A stretch of 64,000 bases of DNA, taken from the NCBI RefSeq assembly GCF_000428945.1, contig NZ_AUAX01000035.1:15368-79367 (forward strand), in the 5' to 3' direction. The notes below the pieces were generated by a model. The model had not been told where the DNA came from. It saw only the letters and a program-made list of their open reading frames with translations, and searched no databases. Positions 7,737 to 40,115 of this stretch are shown here, piece by piece. Position 1 is the stretch's first letter, and each line of letters starts with the position of its first letter. The DNA comes from Hamadaea tsunoensis DSM 44101. Its GTDB lineage: Bacteria > Actinomycetota > Actinomycetes > Mycobacteriales > Micromonosporaceae. A program made the translations under genes and the position numbers.

Positions 7737-8813
7737 CTACTTGCCCGGTTCACCCCCGGCGGCGAGGACCTCGGCGACGTCGAGCCGGATCGGGCGCTCG
7801 AGCTGCTCATAGGTGCACGACGCCGGGTCGCGGTCGGGCCGCCAGCGCAGGAACTGACCGGGATGGCGCAGCCGGTCGCCCTCCATCGCGTCGAACCCGA
7901 CCTCGACGACCAGCTTGGGCTCCAGGCGCTCGAACGAGGTGTCCTTGCCGGAGTTCCAGCGGTTCGGGGCGGCGGGGATGCGCTGGCCGGCCACCGGCTC
8001 GTTCCACGGATGCTCCGCCGGATCCCGGTACGCGGCGATCTCGTCGAGCAGTTCCGACCGGCGCGCGACGCTGAACGCCGAGGTGACCCCGATCGAGTGC
8101 AGTACGCCGTCGTCGTAGAGGCCGAGCAGCAGCGAGCCGACCACCGGACCGGACTTGTGCCAGCGGAAACCGGCCACGACCGCGTCGAGCGTACGCGCGT
8201 GCTTGATCTTTTTCATGAGCCGCTTGCCCGGCACGTAGAGCAGGTCGGCGGGCTTGGCGATGAGGCCGTCGAGCCCGGCGCCCTCGAACTCCTCGAACCA
8301 CCGGTGCGCGGTGGCCGCGTCCGTCGTGACCGGGGTGAGGTGCACGGGGGGCTTCACCTGCGCGAGGGCCTCGGCGAGGCGGGCGCGGCGCTGTGGGAAG
8401 GGGAGCCCGGTCAGGTCCTCGTCGCCGAGCGCGAGCAGGTCGAACGCGACGATCTCGGCGGGCGTCTCGACGGCGAGCTTCTGTACGCGGCTGGCGGCCG
8501 GATGGATGCGCTGTGCGAGCAGCTCGAAGTCGAGCTTGGGCAGGACGCCCGGGTCGCGCCGGACCACGATCAGCTCGCAGTCGATGACGCTGCGCTCGGG
8601 CAGCTGCGCGAGCGCCTGGTCGACGACCTCGGGGAAGTAGCGCGTCAGGGTCTTGCCGCCGCGGCTGGCCAGCTCGACCTCGTCCCCGTCGCGGAAGACG
8701 ATGCAGCGGAAGCCGTCCCACTTGGGCTCGTAGCTCATCCCCGGGTCCTCCGGGATCGCCGGCACGGCCGTGGCCAGCATGGGTTCCAGTGAGATGTCGA
8801 GCGGAAGCTTCAT
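7737..8813 (-). CDS. ligC: ATP-dependent DNA ligase, LigC-like (~358 aa, ligase domain only)
   Basis: Motif I EPKWDGFR (KxDG adenylation lysine); length matches LigC-type ligases; 39 bp upstream of the peptidase gene on the same strand. Confidence 0.8.
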   Translation of the reverse strand: MKLPLDISLEPMLATAVPAIPEDPGMSYEPKWDGFRCIVFRDGDEVELASRGGKTLTRYFPEVVDQALAQLPERSVIDCELIVVRRDPGVLPKLDFELLAQRIHPAASRVQKLAVETPAEIVAFDLLALGDEDLTGLPFPQRRARLAEALAQVKPPVHLTPVTTDAATAHRWFEEFEGAGLDGLIAKPADLLYVPGKRLMKKIKHARTLDAVVAGFRWHKSGPVVGSLLLGLYDDGVLHSIGVTSAFSVARRSELLDEIAAYRDPAEHPWNEPVAGQRIPAAPNRWNSGKDTSFERLEPKLVVEVGFDAMEGDRLRHPGQFLRWRPDRDPASCTYEQLERPIRLDVAEVLAAGGEPGK

Positions 8814-9101
8814 GCGGCAAGTCTTCCACCGCCCCCTGACATCCCGCTCGCCCCACGCGGATCACCTGCTCACGGGGCGCGTGAGAGAACGACGAATGTG
8901 CCTTCATGGTCCCGAAATGATCGAGACTCTTGTGCTTTTAGGAAAGTTTACTTATAACTTCATCCATGGGTGAGCCAGCTCACCGTCCTGCCGGTCGGCG
9001 TGGACGGCGGGCGGGCGAACCGCGGGGGGACAGCGCAAGACGCGCCGGACGCCACAGCGTACGGCCGCGGACAGGGATCAGCGACGCGCAGGAGAGTGCA
9101 A

Positions 9102-11084
<1,983 letters not shown>

Positions 11085-11164: not shown

Positions 11165-11979
11165 TTCAAGATCTTTTTAAAGATTTTGTCCCGGGTTCGT
11201 CGATCTCACTTCCGCTCCTCCCGCGGGAGACCGTTGCGCCCCTATCGCTGCGCTCCGGGGACTCCACTGCCAGCACAGTGGGGCGAAGCATCGTTCACCG
11301 TCGTCCGGTCACCGTTTACCCCGAACCCCGCCCCGGCCTTTGTCGCGACTGTCCGAAATGGTGGTTGGGTGGGTCGGCTTGCTGGTGACCGTTCGCGGCG
11401 GGGATGTAGTTTTCGGGGCTGTTCTCTCGATCCATTGCGGCTGGGATGTCGATTCGGGCTGGTTTTCTACATCCGCCCGCTGTGGATCTTGGGTGCGGGT
11501 GCGTTTTTACATCTCGGCCGCTGTGGATCATGCCCAAGCCGTCAGGCCGTCCCGGGTGGTCCGGGATGCGGGAACGGTCTTCCGTCATGTGGGCGCCGGG
11601 CCTGGGTTTCTTGATCGTTTGCGGCTGGGGTGTAATTCTGGCCCGATCTGCATGATCGTTTGCGGGTCAGGTGTAGCAATAGCCGGTCAGTGCGCTCCGG
11701 AACCGTAAACGATCATGCGGGAGGCGGCTGTTCTGCACCTCAGCCGTAATCGATCACCCGCCCGACCGGGCGGGCGGCCGCACAAGTTGGACAGTCGGGA
11801 CAAAGTCCGGTGGGGGTTGGGGTGAGAGGGTGACCGGGCCGCGGTGGATGATGCTTCGCCCCACAAACCTGGCAGTGGAGGTCCCGCCCGGGTTTGGCGG
11901 GGCCGGAGCGGTCTCCCGCGCGAGGAGCGGAGGTGAGATCGACGAACCCGGGACAAAATGCTCTCACGGATCTTTATTA
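11165..11979. mobile_element. MITE-like non-autonomous element copy A (~815 bp) with long terminal inverted repeats, no credible ORF
   Basis: Left end TTCAAGATCTTTTTAAAGATTTTGTCCCGGGTTCGTCGATCTCACTTCCGCTCCTCCCGCGGGAGACCGTT is the reverse complement of the right end AACGGTCTCCCGCGCGAGGAGCGGAGGTGAGATCGACGAACCCGGGACAAAA...GATCTTT; in this copy the TIR extends to ~130 bp; second copy at 41008-41831. Confidence 0.6.
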
Positions 11980-12867
11980 GAACGACTTGAACGACCGGAT
12001 CGGCATGCGGGGGCCGAACCGTGGCGCGCCGATGCCCTCGCGGAGCAGGAGTTGGCAGACGCGGCCGCGGTGACCTCGGAAGGGCTCCAGGAGTTCGAGC
12101 ATCCGCTCGTCGGTGGCGCGTGGTTCGCCCGCGAGCGCCCAAGCGACCTGGTTCTTGAGGTGGTAGTCCCCGACGCTGACCGCGTCCGGATCGCCGTACG
12201 CGTTGCGCAGCACCTCGGCCGTCGTCCACACCCCGATGCCGTGCACGGCGAGGAGGCGTTGCTCGGTCTGTACGCGTTCGCGCAGCGGCCAGGGCTGCCG
12301 GGCGACGCGCAGGACGGTGTCGGCGCGCTTCTGTTCGAGGCCGAGCGGGTGGAAGTCGTAGTACCGCAACGCCGCCACCTGCTCCTGATGCGGCGGCAGG
12401 AGGAGGGACGCGTGCGGACCGGGCGCGGACTCCCGGAACTTGCGGACGATCGCCGAGTACGCCTGGTACGCCTCCTTCCCGGTGACCTTCTGCTCGCATA
12501 TGGCCCGCAGGACGTGCGGGAAGACGAGGCCCGTGGCGGGCAGCCGGAGCCCGGCGTGCCGGCGGGCGAGGTCGGCGACGAGCGGATGGGCGGCGGCCAG
12601 CTCGGCGAAGGCGGTGAGGTCGTCGCGGAGCCCGTAGACGGCGTCCGCCCGGTCGAGGAACCACTCCGCCCCGTCCCCGTACGCTTCCGCGGTCCCGTCC
12701 GGGTGCAGGCCGAGCGATCCGGGCCCGGACGGCGTACGCCCGGCGAGCCAGAAGACGCCGTCGATGAACCGGACGGACGGGTCATGCCGGCCGAGGGACA
12801 GCTGGCCGAGCGAGCCGGCGAAGTCGTACCTCGCCGGCAGCTCGATGGTCCTGGTCAGCCGGTGCAT
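11977..12867 (-). CDS. alkA: HhH-GPD DNA glycosylase, AlkA-like (DNA-3-methyladenine glycosylase II)
   Basis: HhH-GPD region ...LLAVHGIGVWTAEVL...GDPDAV...D; AlkA-like N-terminal domain; its stop codon TAA lies inside the conserved right end of the MITE-like element. Confidence 0.7.
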   Translation of the reverse strand: MHRLTRTIELPARYDFAGSLGQLSLGRHDPSVRFIDGVFWLAGRTPSGPGSLGLHPDGTAEAYGDGAEWFLDRADAVYGLRDDLTAFAELAAAHPLVADLARRHAGLRLPATGLVFPHVLRAICEQKVTGKEAYQAYSAIVRKFRESAPGPHASLLLPPHQEQVAALRYYDFHPLGLEQKRADTVLRVARQPWPLRERVQTEQRLLAVHGIGVWTTAEVLRNAYGDPDAVSVGDYHLKNQVAWALAGEPRATDERMLELLEPFRGHRGRVCQLLLREGIGAPRFGPRMPIRSFKSF

Positions 12868-12938
12868 GCCGACCATTGTGCCTGGGCGGCTCCCCTGGGC
12901 CCGTCTTCCGGATCATCCGTGGTCCAGGAGACGGGACT

Positions 12939-13886
12939 CTAGCGGGCCGAGGCGCTCACCAGTGCCCGCTGGAGGAGCTTGGTGTCGCCGAGCATCCGGC
13001 GCAGCCGCTGTTCCAGGCCGCCGATCGGGATGAGCTGCTGAGGTGCCCGCGGATCCTTGACGACGCTCGACGCGTACCGGGGGAGGGTCGCGCAGGACAG
13101 GTGGGCCAGGTCGATCGCGGCCTGCGGGGACAGCTCGGCCGAGCATTCGACCCGCACGACGCCCGACCAGGGGATCGCCATCCCGCCGGGCTGGCGCAGG
13201 TACCAGGTGTAGCGCGTCCAGCGGCCGCCGATCCGGAACACCGGCGTACGCTGCCCGGGCGCGAGCTCGCTGACGACCGGGAGCAGGTGGTCGGGCAGGT
13301 ACTGCTTCTGCTGCGTCTTGGCGTAACCGAGGACGCGTGGGGGTGCGCCCGGTCCCCGGAGCGGGCCGTCGACCACGATCAGCTCGTCGCCGCCGTCGGC
13401 CAGCGTGGTGAGGACGTCCGCGGTGGTCTGCTGCTCCAGGTGCATCAGCGCGGACTGCGCCGCGGCCATCAGATCGGCGTCCTGGGCGCCCTCGATGAGC
13501 CTGGCCGTGTAGCGGATCGAGCCGCCGGCGGCCGCCACATCGGACTGGTCCCGGGCGGCGGTGAAGATGGTCCGCTCGACCTGTGCCGCCGCGACCTGGG
13601 CCCCGGTGGCGGTGCAGCGGACCACGCCGGCCGCGTACGAACAGGCCAGTCCGGGGTAGGGCGGCAGGCCGCCGGAGCCGGCCGTCCAGATACGTGCGTC
13701 GATCCGGCGTACGCCGTCGACCATGAGGACGGTGGCCGGCGGGGTGAGGCCGGCCGGCGCGCTGAGCGGGCGCCACTCGCTCGCGGGCAGCTCCACGTCG
13801 ACGTCGAGTCCGTCGGCGGGGCTGCCCGGGGCCGCGTCGAGGCTCGCGCCGTACGACGGGTCCCAGGCATCGACGTGGAAGCTCAT
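12939..13886 (-). CDS. Putative NurA-like 5'-3' nuclease (RNase H-like), last gene of the herA-sbcD-sbcC operon
   Basis: Archaeal herA-mre11-rad50-nurA operon order; hhhhDG-type motifs (FHVDAWD, ELIVVDGPL); ~315 aa; start overlaps the sbcC stop. Confidence 0.5.
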   Translation of the reverse strand: MSFHVDAWDPSYGASLDAAPGSPADGLDVDVELPASEWRPLSAPAGLTPPATVLMVDGVRRIDARIWTAGSGGLPPYPGLACSYAAGVVRCTATGAQVAAAQVERTIFTAARDQSDVAAAGGSIRYTARLIEGAQDADLMAAAQSALMHLEQQTTADVLTTLADGGDELIVVDGPLRGPGAPPRVLGYAKTQQKQYLPDHLLPVVSELAPGQRTPVFRIGGRWTRYTWYLRQPGGMAIPWSGVVRVECSAELSPQAAIDLAHLSCATLPRYASSVVKDPRAPQQLIPIGGLEQRLRRMLGDTKLLQRALVSASAR

Positions 13887-13896
13887 GGCCAGATTT

Positions 13897-16377
13897 CTAC
13901 CCGATCCTGTCAACTCGGGCGGACCGGCCGTCTTTGCGTACCTCGAAGCGGACAGGTATGCGTTCGGCCAGCGCCGCGACGTGGGTGACGACGCCGACCA
14001 TCCGGTCGCCGCGGGCCGCGAGGTTCTCCAGGGTGGCCGCCACCGTGTCCAGCGTGGCGGAGTCGAGCGTGCCGAACCCCTCGTCCAGGAGGATGGATTC
14101 GAGGCTGGCCGTGTGCGCCAGGCCGGCCAGCTGGTCGGCGAGGGCGAGCGCGAGCGCCAGGGAGGCCTGGAACGTCTCGCCGCCGGAGAGCGTACGCACG
14201 GCGCGGGTCAGCCCGGCGTCGTGGTGGTCGACGACGTAGAACTCCCGCGCCCGGTGCACGAGGTCGTACTGGCCGCCGGACAGCTCCTGCAGGATCGTCG
14301 AGGCGCCGAGGACCAGCGCGTCGAGGGCCTCCTCCAGCAGCCAGGCCTCGAAGTTGTTGGCCTTGAGGTGCTGGGCGAGCATGGCCGCGACGACCTTGTC
14401 GGCCTCCACGGCGGCGCGCTGCTGACGGAGATCGTCGGCCCGCCGCCGCGCGTCCAGTACGCGTTCCCGCCCCGCCGCCGCCCGCTCGACCGCGATGGTG
14501 ACCGCCTTCTCCAGGCCGGCGATCTCCTTCGGCATCATGACCTCGGCGATCCGGAACCATTCGGCGACCTTGGCCAGCAGTTCCTGTTCGGTGCGGCTGG
14601 CCTCGGCCACAGCCTGCTCGGCGGCGGCCCGGTCGGCGCCGACCTTCCCGGCGGTCGTGGCCGCCCAGTCGGCCAGCACCTGCCACGCGACCCGCAGATC
14701 GTCGCGCTCGACCGGCGGCGGAGTGCCGATCGGGGCGACCGTGTCGCGGGCGGCGTCGAACACCCGCCAGGCCGAGCGCAGCTGATCCTCGGCGCGCTGC
14801 AGCTGCGTCTGGGCCGCCCGCTGCCGCTCGGCAGCCTGCTTGCGTTCCACTGTGGATCGTTCGAGATCGGTTTCGGCTTCGCGTCGTACCGCCAGGCGCG
14901 CGGCCAGCTCCTCGTCGCTGGGCGCGGTCGCGAGCGCCTCCTGGATCCGGGCCACCTGCTGGGCCAGTTCCTCGACCTTGGCGCGCACGGAGGCGAGCCG
15001 GCGGTCGGTCTCGCGGGCGGCCTGGTCGCGTTCGCCGCGCGCCGCCTCCGCCTTCTCCGCCGCCGCCCGAGCCTGCTTCAGGCGGTCCTGGGCGGCGACG
15101 GTGGCGCCGACCGACCGCTGCTGCGGCAGGGTCGTGACGATCTGCTCGCAGACCATGCACGCCTCGCCGGCATGCAGCAGCGGGCGCAGGACGGCGACCC
15201 GGTCGGTGTTGCGGGCGTCCTCGAGCACCTGCTGAGCGTGGCCGAGGGCGGTGGCCGCGCTGTCCGCCACACCCCGGACCCGGTCCAGGTCGCGGACGGC
15301 GGTGTCGTGCTCCTCCTGTGCCTTCGCGAGCGCGGCGGCGCCCTGCTTCTGCCGGGCCAGACCGGCGGCGAGATCCTGCCGCGACTTCACGAAAGCCTGG
15401 GTCTCGGCCGGGTCCGCGGTGGTCGCCAGCCGCGCCCTCGCCTTCTCCTCGGCCTCCTCGGCGGCGGTCAGCACCTCGGCCGCGGCCGACACCCGTTGCC
15501 GGGCCTCGTCGGCGGCCCCCGCGAGGTTGACCGCTCCGGCGTCCGGCCGGATCCGGCCGAGCGCGGCCAGCTGGCCGTCCAGGGTGGCGAGCTTCTCCAC
15601 GGCGGCCTGCCGGCGCGCGTCCAGCGCCGTGAGCCGCGGCGCCTCGGCCGCCAGCCGGTCGGCGAGGTCGCGGACGGCGGTGACCCGGTCCTCCGCGTCG
15701 GCCAGCCGCTCGTCCGAGGACTCCTCGGTCGCCTCGGCCAGGACGCGCTCCGTCGCCGCCAGCTGGTTGACGGCGGCCTTCTCGCGCTCGGCGGCCTTCT
15801 CCCGGATCTTGTCGTAGACCTCCAGCCCGAGCAGCTTGACCAGGATCTCCTGGCGCTCGGCCGGCTTGGCGTGCAGGAACGCCGCGAACTCGCCCTGCGG
15901 CAGCAGGATGCACTTGATGAACTGGTCGTAGGGCAGGCCGACCACGTCCACCACGGCGCCGTCGAGCTCGTTCGGCGTACCGGCGAGGATCTGGCCCAGC
16001 TCGTCGATCGGCTCGCCGCCGTCGAGGGAGGCCGGATTGAAGTTGTTCGGCAGCAGCTGCAGACCCGCGTGCTTGGTCGCGACCCGGCCCTTGCCGTCGC
16101 GGCGCACGACCCGGCTCACCGCGTACCGGCGGCCGCCGGACTCGAAGATCATTCGAACGGCCGCCTCCACACTGGACGGAGCCAGCGCGTTCGCCACCGT
16201 CTTGCCGCTCCACCGCGGCACCTGGCCGTAGAGCGCGAAGCAGATCGCGTCGAGCAGCGTCGACTTGCCGGCGCCGGTCGGCCCGACGAGCGCGAAGAAG
16301 TCCGCGTCGGTCAGGTCGACGACCGTCGGCTCCCGGAAGACCGTGAACCCCCGCAGGTCCAGCCGGAGCGGGCGCAC
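13897..16377 (-). CDS. sbcC: SbcC/Rad50-type SMC-like ATPase (short, 826-aa form)
   Basis: N-terminal Walker A LVGPTGAGKSTLLDAICFALYG; long coiled coil with a CMVC zinc hook (CxxC); C-terminal signature LSGGETFQASLALALAL and Walker B/D-loop ILLDEGFGTLD. Confidence 0.85.
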   Translation of the reverse strand: MRPLRLDLRGFTVFREPTVVDLTDADFFALVGPTGAGKSTLLDAICFALYGQVPRWSGKTVANALAPSSVEAAVRMIFESGGRRYAVSRVVRRDGKGRVATKHAGLQLLPNNFNPASLDGGEPIDELGQILAGTPNELDGAVVDVVGLPYDQFIKCILLPQGEFAAFLHAKPAERQEILVKLLGLEVYDKIREKAAEREKAAVNQLAATERVLAEATEESSDERLADAEDRVTAVRDLADRLAAEAPRLTALDARRQAAVEKLATLDGQLAALGRIRPDAGAVNLAGAADEARQRVSAAAEVLTAAEEAEEKARARLATTADPAETQAFVKSRQDLAAGLARQKQGAAALAKAQEEHDTAVRDLDRVRGVADSAATALGHAQQVLEDARNTDRVAVLRPLLHAGEACMVCEQIVTTLPQQRSVGATVAAQDRLKQARAAAEKAEAARGERDQAARETDRRLASVRAKVEELAQQVARIQEALATAPSDEELAARLAVRREAETDLERSTVERKQAAERQRAAQTQLQRAEDQLRSAWRVFDAARDTVAPIGTPPPVERDDLRVAWQVLADWAATTAGKVGADRAAAEQAVAEASRTEQELLAKVAEWFRIAEVMMPKEIAGLEKAVTIAVERAAAGRERVLDARRRADDLRQQRAAVEADKVVAAMLAQHLKANNFEAWLLEEALDALVLGASTILQELSGGQYDLVHRAREFYVVDHHDAGLTRAVRTLSGGETFQASLALALALADQLAGLAHTASLESILLDEGFGTLDSATLDTVAATLENLAARGDRMVGVVTHVAALAERIPVRFEVRKDGRSARVDRIG

Positions 16378-17517
16378 TCAGCTCACCTCCTGGTACAGCT
16401 GCTCGAACAGGCGCTGCGTCGCGGGATCGTCGTGGCCCCGGTCGCGCAGGTAGTCGGCGAAGAGATCGGTGGGAGAGCGCTCGGCGCGCGTCGTCCGGCT
16501 CGGCTTGTCCCCGTCCAGCAGGGCGGGGTCGACCCGGATCTCCAGCGCGCGCGGCAGCATCTCCTGCACCTTCTCCCGCAGCCCGGCGTGCGGCTTCTCC
16601 TGCACGATCACGCGCAGCCAGTCCTCGCCCGGCTCCAGCGAGGCCAGCTCCTCCAGCGTCCCCCGGACGGTACGCAGACGCGTCGTCACCGGCAGCGGCA
16701 CGGCCCGGACGAGGGCCGTCGTGTCGGCGGTCGCCTCGACGACCGTCACCGACGGCTCGTTCTCGCCCTCGCCGAAGTCGATCGCGATCGGGCTGCCGCT
16801 GTAGCGCACCGGGCACGCGCCGGGCATCGTCTGCGCCCGGTGCAGGTGGCCCAGCGCCACGTAATGCGTGTTCGACGGGAAGACGGTGGTGGGGACGGCG
16901 TACCCGAGGATGGTGTGGGCCTCCCGCTCGCCGCCGCCCATCGCCGCGCCGACGACCGTCAGGTGCGCGGTCACGAGGTTCACCGCGGCCGGGTCGGAGA
17001 AGCCCTCGGCCGCGATCGCCGACAGCAGCCGGGCGAGGTGGTCGGCGTAGGTGCTGTGGGCCTCGGCCTGGGTCAGCTCGAACATGTCCAGCGCGCGGAC
17101 CGCGTACCGCTGGGAGAGGAAGGGCAGGGCGATGCACCGCCACGGCTCGCCGCCCGGCGTGACCCCGGTGATGAGGTGGTCGTCCGGCTTGTCCGAGACC
17201 CGGCCGCGCAGGTGCAGGTTCTCGGTCTCGGCGAAGACCCGCAGCGCGTCGAGGGCCGGGCCGTTGTCGTGGTTGCCGGCGATCACGATCACCTCGGCGA
17301 CCTGCCGCAGCGCCGCCAGCGCCCGGTAGACGACCTTCTGCGCCTCGGGCGTCGGTGCGGCGGTGTCGAAGAGGTCGCCGGCCACGATGATCAGGTCGGG
17401 CCGCTCCTCGCGGGCCACGCCGATCACCGCGAACAGCGCGGCCAGCTGCTCGTCCGACCGGGACTGTCCCTTGAGGACCTTCCCGACGTGCCAGTCGGAG
17501 GTGTGCAGGATCTTCAC
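16378..17517 (-). CDS. sbcD: SbcD/Mre11-type calcineurin-fold nuclease
   Basis: MKILHTSDWHVG...IIVAGDLFD...GNHD...GHLH phosphoesterase motifs; its start abuts the sbcC gene. Confidence 0.9.
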   Translation of the reverse strand: MKILHTSDWHVGKVLKGQSRSDEQLAALFAVIGVAREERPDLIIVAGDLFDTAAPTPEAQKVVYRALAALRQVAEVIVIAGNHDNGPALDALRVFAETENLHLRGRVSDKPDDHLITGVTPGGEPWRCIALPFLSQRYAVRALDMFELTQAEAHSTYADHLARLLSAIAAEGFSDPAAVNLVTAHLTVVGAAMGGGEREAHTILGYAVPTTVFPSNTHYVALGHLHRAQTMPGACPVRYSGSPIAIDFGEGENEPSVTVVEATADTTALVRAVPLPVTTRLRTVRGTLEELASLEPGEDWLRVIVQEKPHAGLREKVQEMLPRALEIRVDPALLDGDKPSRTTRAERSPTDLFADYLRDRGHDDPATQRLFEQLYQEVS

Positions 17518-17545
17518 GCCGGAAGCCTCCCGGGGTCGCTGTGGA

Positions 17546-19348
17546 TCAGAACGGGATGTCGTCGTCGGAGATGCCGCCGTCGCGGGCCGCGCCGACCACG
17601 GTGAACGGGTCGGTCGCGCTGACCATGCTGGCCAGCGTCGCCCGCGGGGCCGCGCCCGCCTCGGACGGTCGCGTCGCCCACGCCGGGAACGGGAACTCGA
17701 CCGCCAGCGGCACCGGGATCTCCGGCTGCGCCACGAACATCGTGCCCGGCTTGGCCAGCAGCGCCCGCTGCCGTTGGGTCGGCGGGAGGAACCCGTATTC
17801 GGGGCGGGACGCCTCGGCGGGGTCGAGCCGGCCGACGACGCGGACCGCGGAGTTGGAGACGATGCGGCGCTCCACTTCGGACGCGGTCTGCTGGGCGCCG
17901 ATCAGGATCACGCCGAGGGACCGGCCCCGCTCGGCGATGTCGAGCAGCACTTCCTTGATCGGGCTGGAGCCGTCGCGCGGCGCGTACTTGTTGAGCTCGT
18001 CGAGGACGACGAAGAGCAGCGGCTTGGCGGTGCCCGCCTTCTCCTTGCGCTCGAACTCGGTCTTCAGCGTGACGCCGACGACGAACCGCTGCGCGCGGTC
18101 CGGCAGGTTGTGCAGGTCGACGACGGTGACCTGGCCCGCCTCGGCGGTGCTGATCTGGTGCGCACGCCCGCCCGGCAGGTCGCCCCGGATGAGCCGGCCG
18201 AGGTCGCGCTTGCTGGCGATCAGCCGCCGCGCGAAGGCGTTGACCGTGCCCAGGCCGACCGCGCTGCCGGTCCAGCCGGACCGCGTCTCGTCGTCGTTGA
18301 GCTGCTCGACCACGTAGTCCACGAAATCGTCGTAGCTGCCGAGCCGGCGGCCGCCGATGCTCAGCGCGCCGCCCGCGGGCAGCGCCTCGCGGGCGAGGTG
18401 CGCGGTGACCGCGTGCACGACCATCGTGTACTGCTGGCGCTCGTCGTCGGCGTCGGCGAAGACGTAGGGCAGCAGGCGCTGCTCGGCGAACTCGGCCAGG
18501 GTCCAGTAGAAGGGGTCCACGCCGGTCAGCCGGCTCGCCACGTCCGGGCTGCCGGAGGGGTCGCCGGCCCGCGCCGGCGCGAACACCGTGACCTGCTTGA
18601 AGGCGCCGGCGTCCAGGCCGAGCTTGTGGTACGCCTCCCGCGTCGGCGCGTCCAGCCGGTTGTTCTCGTGGTCGAGGAAGAGGAGGTCCTCACCTTTGAC
18701 GTTGAAGATCAGCGCCTTGGTGTTGGCCGATTCCGCCTTCGAGCCGAGCACACCCGAATTGAAGATCGAATAGAGCAGGAAGGTGGCGAAGCTCGTCTTC
18801 GTCGCGACGCCCGAGATGCCGGAGATGCTGACGTGCGCGCCCCGGCTGCCGTCCAGGAAGTCGGCGTTCAGGTAGAGCGGCGCGCCGTCGCGACCGGTGC
18901 CGATGGGCAGGCGGCGGCGCATCCGGTCGAAGCTGAGCGCCGCGTCGCGGGTCTCGCCCTCGGCCCGGTACGCGACCGCGCCCGGCGCCGGCGGCACGTA
19001 GACCTCGGGTTCGACCCGGGTGACCGTGATCTCGGCGGCCTCCTGGACCATCGCGGGCAGCATGCCGTCGGCGATGGCGAAGACGTCGGACTCGAACGCG
19101 GCGCCCTCGTGCCGGGCACGCACGGAGGTCACGACGCCGGAGATGGTGACCGTGCCGCGGTCGGGCAGCTCGCGCTGGGTGACCACGACGTCGTCGAGCT
19201 GCAGGTACGCGTCGGAGCCCACGGCGACCCAGAAGGTCAGCGGGCTCGCGTCCTGCGTTCCGAGCACGCGCCCGACCGGCGTGCCCGGAGATGCGTCGTT
19301 GCTGGGGGTGCGCGCGGGGAAGCTCACGAGACAAGACCCTAGTGCCAA
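17546..19348 (-). CDS. HerA/FtsK-like (DUF87) ATPase, first gene of the herA-sbcD-sbcC-nurA operon
   Basis: N-terminal HAS-barrel-like region; degenerate P-loop GISGVATKTS; Walker B LLFVVLDELNKYAP; 600 aa. Confidence 0.65.
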   Translation of the reverse strand: MALGSCLVSFPARTPSNDASPGTPVGRVLGTQDASPLTFWVAVGSDAYLQLDDVVVTQRELPDRGTVTISGVVTSVRARHEGAAFESDVFAIADGMLPAMVQEAAEITVTRVEPEVYVPPAPGAVAYRAEGETRDAALSFDRMRRRLPIGTGRDGAPLYLNADFLDGSRGAHVSISGISGVATKTSFATFLLYSIFNSGVLGSKAESANTKALIFNVKGEDLLFLDHENNRLDAPTREAYHKLGLDAGAFKQVTVFAPARAGDPSGSPDVASRLTGVDPFYWTLAEFAEQRLLPYVFADADDERQQYTMVVHAVTAHLAREALPAGGALSIGGRRLGSYDDFVDYVVEQLNDDETRSGWTGSAVGLGTVNAFARRLIASKRDLGRLIRGDLPGGRAHQISTAEAGQVTVVDLHNLPDRAQRFVVGVTLKTEFERKEKAGTAKPLLFVVLDELNKYAPRDGSSPIKEVLLDIAERGRSLGVILIGAQQTASEVERRIVSNSAVRVVGRLDPAEASRPEYGFLPPTQRQRALLAKPGTMFVAQPEIPVPLAVEFPFPAWATRPSEAGAAPRATLASMVSATDPFTVVGAARDGGISDDDIPF

Positions 19349-19443
19349 CCTGCGACAAGACCGGGCCGGCGGGGCGTGCCGAGTCGTTTTGGCGACACCG
19401 GACCACCCCGCCGGGCAGCGGAAACTCTCAATAGAGGTTCATC

Positions 19444-20496
19444 TCAGAACGGCGTCACGCGTACGCCCCACGGGCCGGTGACGTGCTCGGGGGTGATCGT
19501 CAGGGTGACGACCTGCCCCGCCTTCTCCCGCAGTCCGGGGAAGGTCGTGCCGCCCACGTCCGGTCCGGCGGCGGTCAGCGTGATCCCGCAGCTCTGCTGG
19601 CTGTAGAGCCAGAACGAGCAGGTGTCCACCTCGACGCCGTCGACCGTCGCCCGCAGGATGCCGGGGGTGGCCGAGCCCATCGTCAGATCGAACGATCCGG
19701 TCCAGATGATCTGCCGGGTGATCGGCGCGGTGACGTCGTCGGCGCTGGTGAACAGATCGTCGTCCAGGTTGCGGAGGTCGTCGCCGTGATGGGTGCCCAC
19801 CGGGATCTCCAGCGAGGGCAGTACGCTCGGCCGTGGCGGCAGCGGGTACTCGTCGAAGGCCACCGACTCGCCCACCGCCACGCCGATCACGGCGTCGTCC
19901 GGTACGGCGATGGGCGAGCTGCCGGGTGTCGGTCCGTTCCGGAACGTCGCGGCCTTGTCGGCGGTGACGGTCAGCGTGGCCGGCGTGCCGAGCACCACCC
20001 CGTACTTCGACCATTCGTCGACCTTCCACCGCCCGGTGCTGCCGTCGCCGCCGTCGCTGCAGCTGAATCCGGCGAACCCCCGGCCGTTGAGCTTGACCTT
20101 CAGGAAGAGCTGGGTGCCCTCCGGCGCGTGGAACGAGCAGGAATGGAAGATCGTGATCTCGTTCGATGTCGAAGTCGGCGTCCACGTCAGCGTCAGCGGC
20201 CCCGCCGAGTACGCCTGCCGGCCCGACGCGATCACGCGCGCTCCGCTCGCGTACTCGGGGAAGCCGTTGATCGTCCTGGGGGACGGTGTGGCCGCCGGCG
20301 TGGGCGCGGACCGGTGGGCCGGCGTGCCGATGATCAGGCCGGTGACCAGGACGGCGACCGCGGCGACGGCGGCGACCGCGCTGGCGGCGAGGCGGCGCCG
20401 GCGCCGCACGATCCGCGCGCGTACCGAGATCATCCGCAGCCCGTCGAGCGACGGCGCGCCGGCGGAGCGCTGCTCCATGAGCTCCTTGAGGTCCAT
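19444..20496 (-). CDS. Membrane-anchored anti-sigma factor partner of the ECF sigma (N-in, single TM, extracytoplasmic domain)
   Basis: Its ATG overlaps the sigma-gene TGA (TGATG); ~45-aa cytoplasmic part, then TM LAASAVAAVAAVAVLVTGLIIG, then a Pro/Thr-rich linker and beta-rich domain. Confidence 0.6.
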   Translation of the reverse strand: MDLKELMEQRSAGAPSLDGLRMISVRARIVRRRRRLAASAVAAVAAVAVLVTGLIIGTPAHRSAPTPAATPSPRTINGFPEYASGARVIASGRQAYSAGPLTLTWTPTSTSNEITIFHSCSFHAPEGTQLFLKVKLNGRGFAGFSCSDGGDGSTGRWKVDEWSKYGVVLGTPATLTVTADKAATFRNGPTPGSSPIAVPDDAVIGVAVGESVAFDEYPLPPRPSVLPSLEIPVGTHHGDDLRNLDDDLFTSADDVTAPITRQIIWTGSFDLTMGSATPGILRATVDGVEVDTCSFWLYSQQSCGITLTAAGPDVGGTTFPGLREKAGQVVTLTITPEHVTGPWGVRVTPF

Positions 20497-20993
20497 CACT
20501 TCAGCACTCCTTCCAGCGCGAACGCGTCGTCGACCCGCAGCTTGGCCAGGGCGCGGGCGGCCTGGCTCTTGACCGTGCCGAGCGAGACGCCGAGCGTCTC
20601 GGCGATCTCGGCCTCGGACAGTTCCTCGAAGTAGCGCAGCACCAGCACCGCGCGCTGCCGCCGCGGCAGCCGGCCCAGCGCCTGCCACACCTGGTCACGG
20701 GTGTCGACCTGGGCGGTCCGGTCGGCGACGGCGGCCTCCGGCAGGGTCTCGGTCGGCCGTTCGTTGCGCCATCGGCGCCGCCACCAGGTCGCATAGGTGT
20801 TGACCAGGATCGCCCGCACGTAGGGCTCGGGATCGGCGTCGATGCGCTTCCAGGCGCCCCAGGCCCGGACCAGGGCGGTCTGCAGGAGGTCCTCGGCGAG
20901 GGCCCAGTCATGAGTCAGCAGGAAGGCTGTTCGCAGAAGGCGCGGCGAGCGAGTCGCCACGAAGTCCTCGAAAGTCGAGTCGGACACCGGCAT
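20496..20993 (-). CDS. ECF-type RNA polymerase sigma-70 factor (regions 2 and 4)
   Basis: Region 2 LLTHDWALAEDLLQTALVRAW and region 4 LPRRQRAVLVLRYFEELSEAEIAETLGVSLGTVKSQ. Confidence 0.85.
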   Translation of the reverse strand: MPVSDSTFEDFVATRSPRLLRTAFLLTHDWALAEDLLQTALVRAWGAWKRIDADPEPYVRAILVNTYATWWRRRWRNERPTETLPEAAVADRTAQVDTRDQVWQALGRLPRRQRAVLVLRYFEELSEAEIAETLGVSLGTVKSQAARALAKLRVDDAFALEGVLK

Positions 20994-39485: not shown

Positions 39486-40115
39486 CTAGGCGACGGCCTC
39501 CCGCACCGCCGGGCGCAGCGCGTACACGACACCGGTCGCGAGCAGGAACTGGGCCAGGATGTAGGTGGTCATCACCCAGATGTCCGACGGCCACAGCTGC
39601 GGCCGGTCGGCCAGTCCCATCGCGAGGATCGCGTCGGACACGACGAACAGCAGCCCGCCGAGGCCCGTACGCAGGCCGTAGCCGGCCGACGTCGCGCCGG
39701 TGGCGATCAGCAGCAGAGAGTAGGCCGCCACCGGGACGCGCAGACCCGCGTCCAGCCCCGGCCACAGCCACACGATCAGCAGCAGCCACACGACCAGGTA
39801 GGCCGCCGGGATCCACGGCCGCCTGCGCAGGCCCGCGAAGGCGCCGTTGCGCACGAAGTACGTCACGTAGCAGGCGTGCCCGACCGCGAAGCACCCCATG
39901 CCGACGATGAACCAGCCGTCGAAGCCCAGCGTGATGTCGCCCGCCGCGCCGAACAGCAGCGCCGCGACGATCGGCTTCGGCCCCCGCCGCGTCGCCACCC
40001 ACAGCGCCAGCGTGGGCACCAGCACCCACTTCGTCAGCTGCTCCAGCCAGTGCGGCCCCGTTTCGAGCGAGACCAGATGAGCCAGACCCACCATGGCGTA
40101 CGCGACGAGGATCAT
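39486..40115 (-). CDS. YhhN-family membrane protein (TMEM86/lysoplasmalogenase-like)
   Basis: Eight TM segments with YhhN motifs (FGAAGDITL...FVVSDAILA); ATGA overlap with the upstream hydroxylase gene. Confidence 0.65.
   Translation of the reverse strand: MILVAYAMVGLAHLVSLETGPHWLEQLTKWVLVPTLALWVATRRGPKPIVAALLFGAAGDITLGFDGWFIVGMGCFAVGHACYVTYFVRNGAFAGLRRRPWIPAAYLVVWLLLIVWLWPGLDAGLRVPVAAYSLLLIATGATSAGYGLRTGLGGLLFVVSDAILAMGLADRPQLWPSDIWVMTTYILAQFLLATGVVYALRPAVREAVA

Follow-up and report, generated by a model that had tools for sequence, protein, structure and literature searches.

Whether the Mre11-Rad50 and HerA-NurA machineries act together on DNA ends outside the archaea is a question raised by four consecutive genes of Hamadaea tsunoensis (Micromonosporaceae). 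The genes occupy positions 12939-19348 on the minus strand of the 64,000-nucleotide (nt) stretch of DNA analyzed here (the window; GC content, ~70%), and they encode HerA, SbcD, SbcC, and NurA. The original prediction, made from the sequence alone, had read them as an end-resection operon in the archaeal order herA-mre11-rad50-nurA. Our analysis leads us to conclude, with good confidence, that they represent a chromosomal operon that is present across the Micromonosporaceae and in every other actinobacterial lineage sampled and that encodes a DNA end-processing machine of two modules.

Bacterial HerA-NurA, including its presence in Actinobacteria, has already been described (PMC8708640), and most work on it has so far been done in Deinococcus, with genetic studies in Thermus. 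The connection between HerA-NurA and SbcCD in Deinococcus has explicitly been called an open question (PMC4663267). The literature that we searched yielded no account of the four-gene operon of actinobacteria, of the promoter motif that precedes it, of the C-terminal tail of its HerA, or of the shortened SbcC of the Micromonosporaceae; a mention in Iyer et al. 2004 or in Cheng et al. 2015 (J Bacteriol) is possible.

The four open reading frames (ORFs) are contiguous on the minus strand, as predicted, and their third-position GC content of 0.93 to 0.98 matches that of real genes in a 70% GC genome. The junctions had been described as overlapping or abutting; they abut, with gaps of 28, 0, and 10 nt for herA/sbcD, sbcD/sbcC, and sbcC/nurA, respectively, and none of them overlaps. 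The herA stop codon (TGA, 17546-17548) is followed by 28 nt that include the Shine-Dalgarno sequence GGGAGG and then by the sbcD start (GTG, 17517). The sbcC start (GTG, 16377) comes immediately after the TGA of sbcD and has a Shine-Dalgarno GGAGG 8 nt upstream, and the sbcC stop (TAG, 13897-13899) lies 10 nt before the nurA start (ATG, 13886). Between 11500 and 20000, no terminator-like site was detected on the coding (minus) strand. The same four genes appear in an independent gene call for a public contig of identical sequence, with herA beginning at GTG 19327 (593 amino acids [aa]) and nurA at ATG 13886 (315 aa). The longest reading of herA begins at TTG 19348 (600 aa), but GTG 19327 is the likelier start because the independent gene call uses it and because it falls 8 nt past a -10-like hexamer. 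The longest nurA ORF begins at TTG 13913; we set this start aside for ATG 13886, since all homologs begin with M-x-F-x-V-D-x-W and an invariant W8.

Identity of the four proteins

HerA (17546-19327, minus strand, 593 aa) is a bacterial-type HerA ring ATPase/translocase. A phmmer search of PDB sequences matched its residues 20 to 564 to the HerA of Deinococcus radiodurans (7F6D chain B) at an E value of 7e-141 with ~53% identity. All of the remaining PDB matches are HerA proteins, and no FtsK, TraG, or TrwB appears among them at E<10, so that the ATPase groups with HerA, as predicted, rather than with the FtsK/TraG conjugation ATPases. The Walker A motif GISGVATKT (K177/T178), E213/D214, and the Walker B motif VVLDE (D443/E444) are invariant in the alignment and correspond to K175/T176, residue 220, and D487/E488 of the D. 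radiodurans protein (drHerA), which are functionally important there (PMC9960219). The HerA family comprises 500 clusters (50% identity) at E<=1e-30, a modest size. The Pfam search that had been proposed as a check on the 17546-19348 product yielded no match at E<=1, DUF87 included, and the NCBIfam HerA models score only 11 to 18 bits against cutoffs of 800 to 970. These failures reflect the coverage of the models rather than missing homology, because the models derive from archaeal and defense HerA proteins. From homology, and from the co-occurrence of herA and nurA in every locus, HerA is predicted to form a hexameric ring that binds a NurA dimer.

NurA (12939-13886, minus strand, 315 aa), which is 100% identical to an NCBI protein of H. 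tsunoensis, likewise escapes the family model named for it. The proposed search of the 12939-13886 product with PF09376 gave no match above threshold, and a precomputed match exists for only 1 of 120 close homologs. Direct comparison is more informative. As a single sequence, NurA matches the NurA of the D. radiodurans complex (7f6d_H) at 3.7e-21 by phmmer against PDB, and a profile of 28 sequences reaches 1e-46 for the 7F6D NurA and 1.6e-12 for TM1739 (1ZUP). TM1739 is itself regarded as a bacterial NurA, and 7F6D is the apo drHerA-NurA complex as solved by cryo-electron microscopy (PMC9960219). An AlphaFold2 model (predicted local distance difference test score [pLDDT], 85) searched against PDB with Foldseek agrees with these assignments. 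Its matches are D. radiodurans NurA (drNurA; 7f6d_G; E, 1.9e-19; template modeling [TM] score, 0.70), TM1739 (1zup; 2.3e-14; TM, 0.66), Sulfolobus NurA (2ygk; 1.4e-6; TM, 0.45; 11% identity), and the TdpAB nuclease subunit (8wfd_G; 3.1e-5; TM, 0.43). The NurA/RNase H-like fold expected of the 315-aa protein is thus recovered, with three NurA proteins as the best folds.

The two hhhhDG motifs noted earlier in this protein are LMVDG (D57) and IVVDG (D173), and both are invariant in the family. Across the 28 sequences, one of which is cyanobacterial, the invariant residues are W8, D57-G58, E151, D173-G174, K190, Y196, R245, E247, and D278-x-R280. The acidic residues D57, E151, D173, and D278 fall within motifs that the sequence alignment places opposite those of drNurA, and W8 occupies the same position as the drNurA W8, which, together with the pin motif, is needed for unwinding (PMC9960219). 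These data support the prediction that the 315-aa protein is a NurA, an RNase H-like nuclease; it is of the bacterial type.

The closest characterized relative of the pair is the HerA-NurA of D. radiodurans. Its HerA has identical Walker A, Walker B, and catalytic residues, and its NurA agrees with that of Hamadaea in fold, in the VDG/DGP motifs, and in the W8 close to the N-terminal pin. The Deinococcus complex, HerA6-NurA2, carries out ATP-dependent resection of the 5' strand (PMC9960219). By analogy, the Hamadaea proteins probably adopt the same HerA6:NurA2 architecture and the same ATP-driven 5' resection.

The two middle genes encode SbcCD. SbcD (16378-17517, minus strand, 379 aa) is an Mre11-family nuclease subunit that matches TIGR00619 at 2.7e-49 with 168 bits (cutoff, 77.65), and its Pfam Metallophos and SbcD_C domains both score above threshold. 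All phosphoesterase motifs are present: DWH (residue 8), GDLFD (47), GNHD (81), and GHLH (223). SbcC (13897-16377, minus strand, 826 aa) is a Rad50-family ABC ATPase that matches TIGR00618 at 2.5e-84, with the Pfam domains AAA_23 and SbcC_Walker_B above threshold; its 284 bits fall under the cutoff of 478.5, which is consistent with a shortened coiled coil. The split ABC head is complete, with Walker A at residue 32, LSGGE at 730, Walker B at 762, and the H-loop at 796-799. As the original prediction had it, the 826-aa protein contains a zinc hook, formed by its sole CxxC (CMVC, residues 407-410; 15148-15159, minus strand) at the center of the chain. Hamadaea and the E. coli/Bacillus SbcCD share families and motifs, and the equivalog models match at 1e-44 to 1e-49, under their cutoffs. 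What differs is the length of SbcC, which falls ~220 aa short of the E. coli model (1,047 positions), and the placement of sbcD-sbcC between herA and nurA.

The short SbcC is a trait of the family. The median length of 70 Micromonosporaceae SbcC proteins is 823 aa, as opposed to 1,102 to 1,145 aa in Streptomyces, Microlunatus, Nocardioides, Pseudonocardia, and Thalassiella, a difference of ~280 to 320 aa. The hook reads CPVC in 69 of the 70, the exception being the CMVC of Hamadaea itself, and CPVC also occurs in the five other actinobacteria, where it lies near residue 524 rather than 407. Because the hook remains central, both arms of the coiled coil appear to have been shortened symmetrically, by ~117 residues each.

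Distribution of the gene order and its relation to known systems

To place the Hamadaea genes among their relatives, we scanned species-representative genomes, in which the best 80 loci all belong to Micromonosporaceae. The genera include Catellatospora, Rhizocola, Planosporangium, Micromonospora, Plantactinospora, Dactylosporangium, Actinoplanes, Krasilnikovia, Asanoa, Winogradskya, Pseudosporangium, and Verrucosispora. Every sufficiently long locus carries herA-sbcD-sbcC-nurA in the same order and on the same strand. Identity to the window proteins is 75 to 83% for HerA, 59 to 70% for SbcD, ~50 to 56% for SbcC (full-length matches), and 47 to 57% for NurA. The flanks are syntenic as well. 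In 52 loci, the upstream side carries a solute-binding-protein gene; in 46, an HhH-GPD-like gene follows nurA and is itself succeeded by a gene for a LigC-type ATP-dependent ligase.

We sampled more widely by tblastn against a plasmid collection and by examining the gene contexts of HerA homologs from a protein search. The same order recurs in Nonomuraea gerenzanensis, on a Streptomyces linear plasmid, at a Streptomyces chromosome end, and in Microlunatus, Nocardioides, Pseudonocardia, and Thalassiella, and the NurA proteins of these loci are 42 to 48% identical to that of the window. A cyanobacterial conjugative plasmid carries the genes as nurA-herA-sbcD-sbcC. Among the actinobacteria sampled, the four-gene arrangement is standard; it is neither a rarity nor a peculiarity of the Hamadaea genome.

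In two Micromonospora loci, an insertion of ~1.5 kb interrupts the operon, between sbcD and sbcC in L042 (12878-14443) and between sbcC and nurA in L051 (15353-16799). Mobile elements may account for these insertions and thus for the splitting of the operon.

The herA-mre11-rad50-nurA operon of archaea (Sulfolobus, Pyrococcus/Thermococcus) has four functions and their order in common with the Hamadaea locus. In Sulfolobus, this operon corresponds to SSO2251-2248. Its published order, herA, mre11, rad50, nurA (PMC4351679), equals that of Hamadaea, as predicted; the likeness concerns the order only, since the proteins are of the bacterial type. The Sulfolobus operon is cotranscribed and acts in resection (PMC2288612, PMC4351679). 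Archaeal models recognize the Hamadaea HerA at ~1e-3 and SbcD and SbcC (Mre11/Rad50) at 1e-12 to 1e-16, compared with 1e-49 and 1e-84 for the bacterial SbcD and SbcC models, and Sulfolobus NurA matches the Hamadaea protein at the level of fold only. Archaeal NurA lacks the pin motif (PMC9960219). In length, and in its central CxxC, the 826-aa SbcC resembles archaeal Rad50 (~880 aa, judging from NCBIfam model lengths). By sequence comparison, the four proteins are bacterial-type proteins rather than orthologs of the archaeal ones, and the gene order alone is archaeal.

A bacterial counterpart is the cluster nurA-hepA(herA)-sbcD-sbcC of Oceanithermus profundus (Blesa et al. 2017, PMC5448004), in which a bacterial HerA-NurA is linked to a bacterial SbcCD, as here. 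Oceanithermus belongs to another phylum, and its sbcD and sbcC lie downstream of hepA with nurA first, as on the cyanobacterial plasmid. The cluster was interpreted as an archaeal-like break-repair architecture in a passing mention that analyzes neither regulation nor the HerA tail (PMC5448004). The archaeal-like order is no evidence for transfer of a whole operon; the cyanobacterial plasmid has nurA-herA-sbcD-sbcC, and in Oceanithermus, according to the literature, the two sbc genes likewise lie downstream of herA. The shared order may instead be convergent, because nurA can stand only first or last once herA-sbcD-sbcC is fixed, and the cyanobacteria take the other option.

AdnAB, RecBCD, and AddAB are functional analogs that produce 3' tails at breaks in an ATP-driven manner (PMC3326311). 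Their folds and architecture are unrelated: they are heterodimers or heterotrimers with superfamily 1 helicase and nuclease activities, in contrast to the ring translocase and RNase H-like dimer described here.

Promoter motif, HerA tail, and proposed mechanism

Upstream of herA lies TGTCGCAGGTTGGCACTAGGGT (19336-19357, minus strand), a PafBC-type hybrid promoter motif. It consists of a -26 element, TGTCG, followed by a -10 hexamer, TAGGGT, and ends 8 nt short of GTG 19327, which implies a leaderless herA mRNA. The consensus for RecA-independent/PafBC promoters has been published as tGTCgg(N10)tA(N3)T, in which the GTC is strictly conserved and a canonical -10 occurs without a -35 (PMC8635444), and as tTGTCRgtg-8nt-TannnT (PMC5656591). 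The Hamadaea sequence, TGTCGC-N10-TAGGGT at 19357-19336, fits both; its GTC stands 12 nt ahead of the -10 hexamer, and there is no -35. The pattern TGTCR-N11-YANNNT has a single intergenic match in the window, and the other three matches are intragenic.

In 74 of the 80 Micromonosporaceae loci, herA is preceded by a relaxed form of the motif, compared with 2.8% of shuffled sequences, and this form lies ~40 to 150 nt upstream of the herA match in loci L002 to L081. The typical form in the family is TGTCGTAC-N8-CAGGAT, followed after 6 to 7 nt by GTG or ATG, a spacing that again implies leaderless mRNAs. Outside the family, the canonical TGTCGG-N10-TACGGT precedes herA in Nocardioides and Thalassiella (L087, 7908-7929; L089, 7915-7936). 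Of the six family members without the motif, five (Planosporangium and Dactylosporangium) have an SOS-box-like CGAAC-N4-GTNC upstream of herA, which is weak evidence given its 3 to 4 mismatches to the mycobacterial TCGAAC-N4-GTTCGA. On the basis of the promoter motif, we predict with moderate confidence that transcription of the operon is induced by DNA damage.

A canonical-looking sequence, TGTC[GA]-N11-TAGTTT, occurs in three Actinoplanes loci at the same relative position, with a GTG 12 nt later (L059 5283, L063 5771, L073 5830 (-)). The gene that follows it in L073 is bioF-like (8-amino-7-oxononanoate synthase). This sequence may be the site of another regulator, or PafBC-type promoters may not be confined to repair genes.

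HerA itself has a distinctive C terminus. The protein ends in ...SDDDIPF, and its final six residues (codons 17549-17566, minus strand) are identical to the C-terminal hexapeptide of SSB (the protein that binds single-stranded DNA), DDDIPF, through which SSB binds its partners (PMC5872125). The tip follows a linker of ~40 residues past the last HerA core motif, PFPAWATR. Among the fetched loci, 81 HerA orthologs end in DD[DEG]IPF, whereas a DDDIPF-type end is found on none of the remaining ORFs, either of the window or of 1.6 Mb of related loci. Elsewhere in the actinobacteria, HerA ends in DEPPY, EPPPPY, DEPPPF, DDDAPF, or DDQPPF; these ends resemble the mycobacterial SSB tip, DDEPPF. The tails of the wider family are acidic and aromatic, yet varied. 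A Deinococcus-like representative, other than drHerA itself, ends in ...DWLGL, unlike the actinobacterial HerA with its ~40-residue tail and SSB-like tip. A second conserved motif, DPF-x-x-[VL], lies ~15 to 25 residues before the tip. We found no paper in the literature searched that connects the SSB tip motif with HerA.

Taken together, these features suggest a mechanism. DNA damage would activate the PafBC-type (-26/-10) promoter, most likely giving one leaderless transcript of all four genes. In the first module, SbcCD, two SbcC ABC-ATPase heads joined through their coiled coils and zinc hook would carry the Mn-dependent SbcD nuclease, and the complex would recognize DNA ends and clip those that are blocked or form hairpins. 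In the second module, a HerA-NurA of the Deinococcus type, the HerA hexamer would pump duplex DNA through its pore into the NurA dimer. There, the N-terminal pin region of NurA would split the strands, and its RNase H-like sites would degrade the 5' strand to leave a 3' tail for RecA. In vivo, the two modules may thereby cooperate in resection in the 5'-to-3' direction. More speculatively, the HerA tails might recruit proteins that are clients of SSB.

This last step can be extended into a more specific proposal, which we regard as doubtful. The actinobacterial SbcCD and HerA-NurA might form one PafBC-controlled, damage-induced, four-protein resection machine in which six SSB-mimicking HerA tips (DDDIPF here; DEPPF- or DEPPY-like elsewhere) recruit SSB clients such as RecO/RecR, RecJ, or RecQ directly to the resecting end. 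The drHerA protein binds the C-terminal domain of RecJ (PMC4663267). If the proposal is true, such recruitment would link resection to the loading of RecA with neither Chi nor loading of the RecBCD type, and the machine would parallel, in bacteria, the eukaryotic hand-off from MRN to Exo1/Dna2.

Alternative explanations, significance, and surrounding genes

Several observations weigh against a damage-induced machine that joins the two modules. The herA-nurA genes of D. radiodurans form their own operon, unlinked to sbcCD (PMC8708640, PMC4663267), unlike the Hamadaea genes, between which sbcD-sbcC lies, and the role of the Deinococcus complex is subtle. Actinobacteria already possess the AdnAB, RecBCD, and RecO pathways; the presence of AdnAB and RecBCD leaves the need for a further resection system unexplained. 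The promoter argument has its own weaknesses. In most Micromonosporaceae, the -10 hexamer begins with C (CAGGAT) rather than T; in the loci examined from Streptomyces, Microlunatus, and Pseudonocardia, herA has no PafBC-type motif upstream; and the motif is short and nonspecific, since TGTCGGTG-N8-TAGTTT precedes bioF in three Actinoplanes loci. The window does not contain pafBC. The two Streptomyces copies differ from those of the Micromonosporaceae in their setting. One (L083, 1-5382) is on a 452-kb linear plasmid, beside TIGR02680, TIGR02678, and DUF2397 genes, which we take to be Wadjet-like, and an ImmA/IrrE peptidase gene. The other (L085, 8943834-8961735 of 8,964,405 bp) lies <21 kb from the chromosome end among helicase and transposase genes. 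Placed in this way, the Streptomyces operon looks accessory or mobile and less like core repair.

The same neighborhoods give some weight to the view that the cluster serves in defense, with proteins like SbcCD and HerA-NurA sensing and destroying the linear ends of foreign DNA from plasmids or phages, as in Lamassu, TdpAB, and other HerA-containing systems. Besides the presumed Wadjet-like genes next to the Streptomyces plasmid copy and the helicase and transposase genes near the chromosome-end copy, this view can call on the location of the cyanobacterial copy on a conjugative plasmid and on the speculation of Blackwood et al. that archaeal HerA-NurA has a protective role (PMC3326311). TdpAB and other HerA-nuclease defense modules combine a HerA-like hexamer with a NurA-like nuclease, and the Hamadaea NurA model also resembles the TdpAB subunit, but this match is far weaker than those to the repair NurA proteins. 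PADLOC returned weak generic matches, of HerA to mad8 (1.4e-9) and to HerA models (~1e-5) and of SbcC to mad3 (4.6e-28) and LmuB (6.5e-22). They are far weaker than the repair-protein matches, are confined to P-loop regions, and do not include NurA, and no PADLOC-defined system has a significant full-length component match. The best matches are instead the repair complex 7F6D and the canonical sbcC and sbcD families, and the motif upstream of herA is of the DNA damage type. The Hamadaea cluster is chromosomal, syntenic, and conserved, with no modification or sensor genes nearby, and it occupies one and the same chromosomal position, with conserved synteny, in each of the 80 Micromonosporaceae species sampled, with HerA ~80% identical, whereas defense systems are typically patchy and fast evolving. 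We consider a defense function quite unlikely, although the two Streptomyces copies might have one.

A second alternative is that two independent systems share an operon, SbcCD cleaving hairpins and blocked ends and HerA-NurA doing something separate, such as the RecJ modulation or the effect on cell proliferation proposed in Deinococcus, with no hand-off between them. The pairs are indeed unlinked in D. radiodurans and Thermus, and drHerA binds RecJ (PMC4663267, PMC5448004). Yet sbcD-sbcC splits herA from nurA in every actinobacterial locus, the stops and starts of the operon abut, and the four genes are linked in the actinobacteria and cyanobacteria sampled here as well as in Oceanithermus and archaea according to the literature. 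Archaeal Mre11 binds HerA (PMC2288612). Against this background, we judge independence of the two modules to be improbable. In 2004, Iyer et al. reportedly proposed an FtsK-like segregation role for HerA-NurA, which would make the pair a DNA pump for chromosomes or plasmids rather than a repair enzyme. The linkage to SbcCD, the DNA-damage-type motif upstream, the neighboring genes with repair functions (a glycosylase-like gene and a ligase gene), and the resection activity demonstrated for the close homolog (PMC9960219) all speak against this role, and we regard it as highly improbable.

If the four genes do encode a joint DNA end-processing machine, it is a candidate for a fourth end-resection route beside AdnAB, RecBCD, and RecO. 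In hyperthermophilic archaea, all four genes are essential and hence hard to study. Since the four genes form one unit in genera such as Micromonospora, Streptomyces, Nocardioides, and Pseudonocardia, for some of which genetic tools are established, cooperation between Mre11-Rad50 and HerA-NurA becomes testable outside the archaea. The putative PafBC promoter, the SSB tip mimic on HerA, and the lineage-specific shortening of the SbcC coiled coil offer experimental handles.

The annotation of these proteins lags behind their homology. NCBI names HerA "ATP-binding protein" and NurA "hypothetical protein," the latter as the original prediction expected for the fourth gene; the generic names follow from the lack of a Pfam match and from NCBIfam scores far under the cutoffs for both proteins. 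Elsewhere, several NurA homologs in UniRef are already called "NurA domain-containing protein," and JGI names HerA "DNA helicase HerA-like ATPase." The gap is wide, in that Pfam NurA (PF09376), DUF87, and the NCBIfam HerA models miss HerA and NurA of the bacterial type, so that thousands of homologs are called hypothetical or ATP-binding protein, among them at least 3,908 NurA-like proteins at E<=1e-3.

Other genes surround the core four. An Rfam search over the window found nothing, and a 94-nt tRNA-Ala(GGC) called by ARAGORN at 39951-40044 (minus strand) is probably spurious, as it lies inside an ORF with high third-position GC (39486-40115) and has no Rfam tRNA match. Directly upstream of herA, an extracytoplasmic function (ECF) sigma factor gene (165 aa) overlaps a gene for a 350-aa protein with no Pfam domains (19444-20993, minus strand). 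The 350-aa protein is probably the anti-sigma factor, and the pair is conserved beside the operon only in Catellatospora.

On the other side, 62 nt past nurA, lies a gene for a 299-aa protein that weakly resembles HhH-GPD/AlkA proteins (11977-12876, minus strand) and may be cotranscribed with the operon. Its Pfam HhH-GPD match (3.2e-5) narrowly misses the cutoff, its NCBIfam match to DNA-3-methyladenine glycosylase 2 (5.7e-6) falls far under the cutoff, and it has no match among PDB sequences. Farther along, a GH18 chitinase gene with CBM5/12 (8970-11084, plus strand) separates it from a gene for a LigC-type ATP-dependent DNA ligase (7737-8813, minus strand; NF006078, 2e-151). A gene like that for the 299-aa protein also adjoins nurA directly in Dactylosporangium and Planosporangium. 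In three Dactylosporangium loci (L034, L039, and L062), nurA, the HhH-GPD-like gene, and the ligase gene are directly contiguous, which suggests a larger repair neighborhood.

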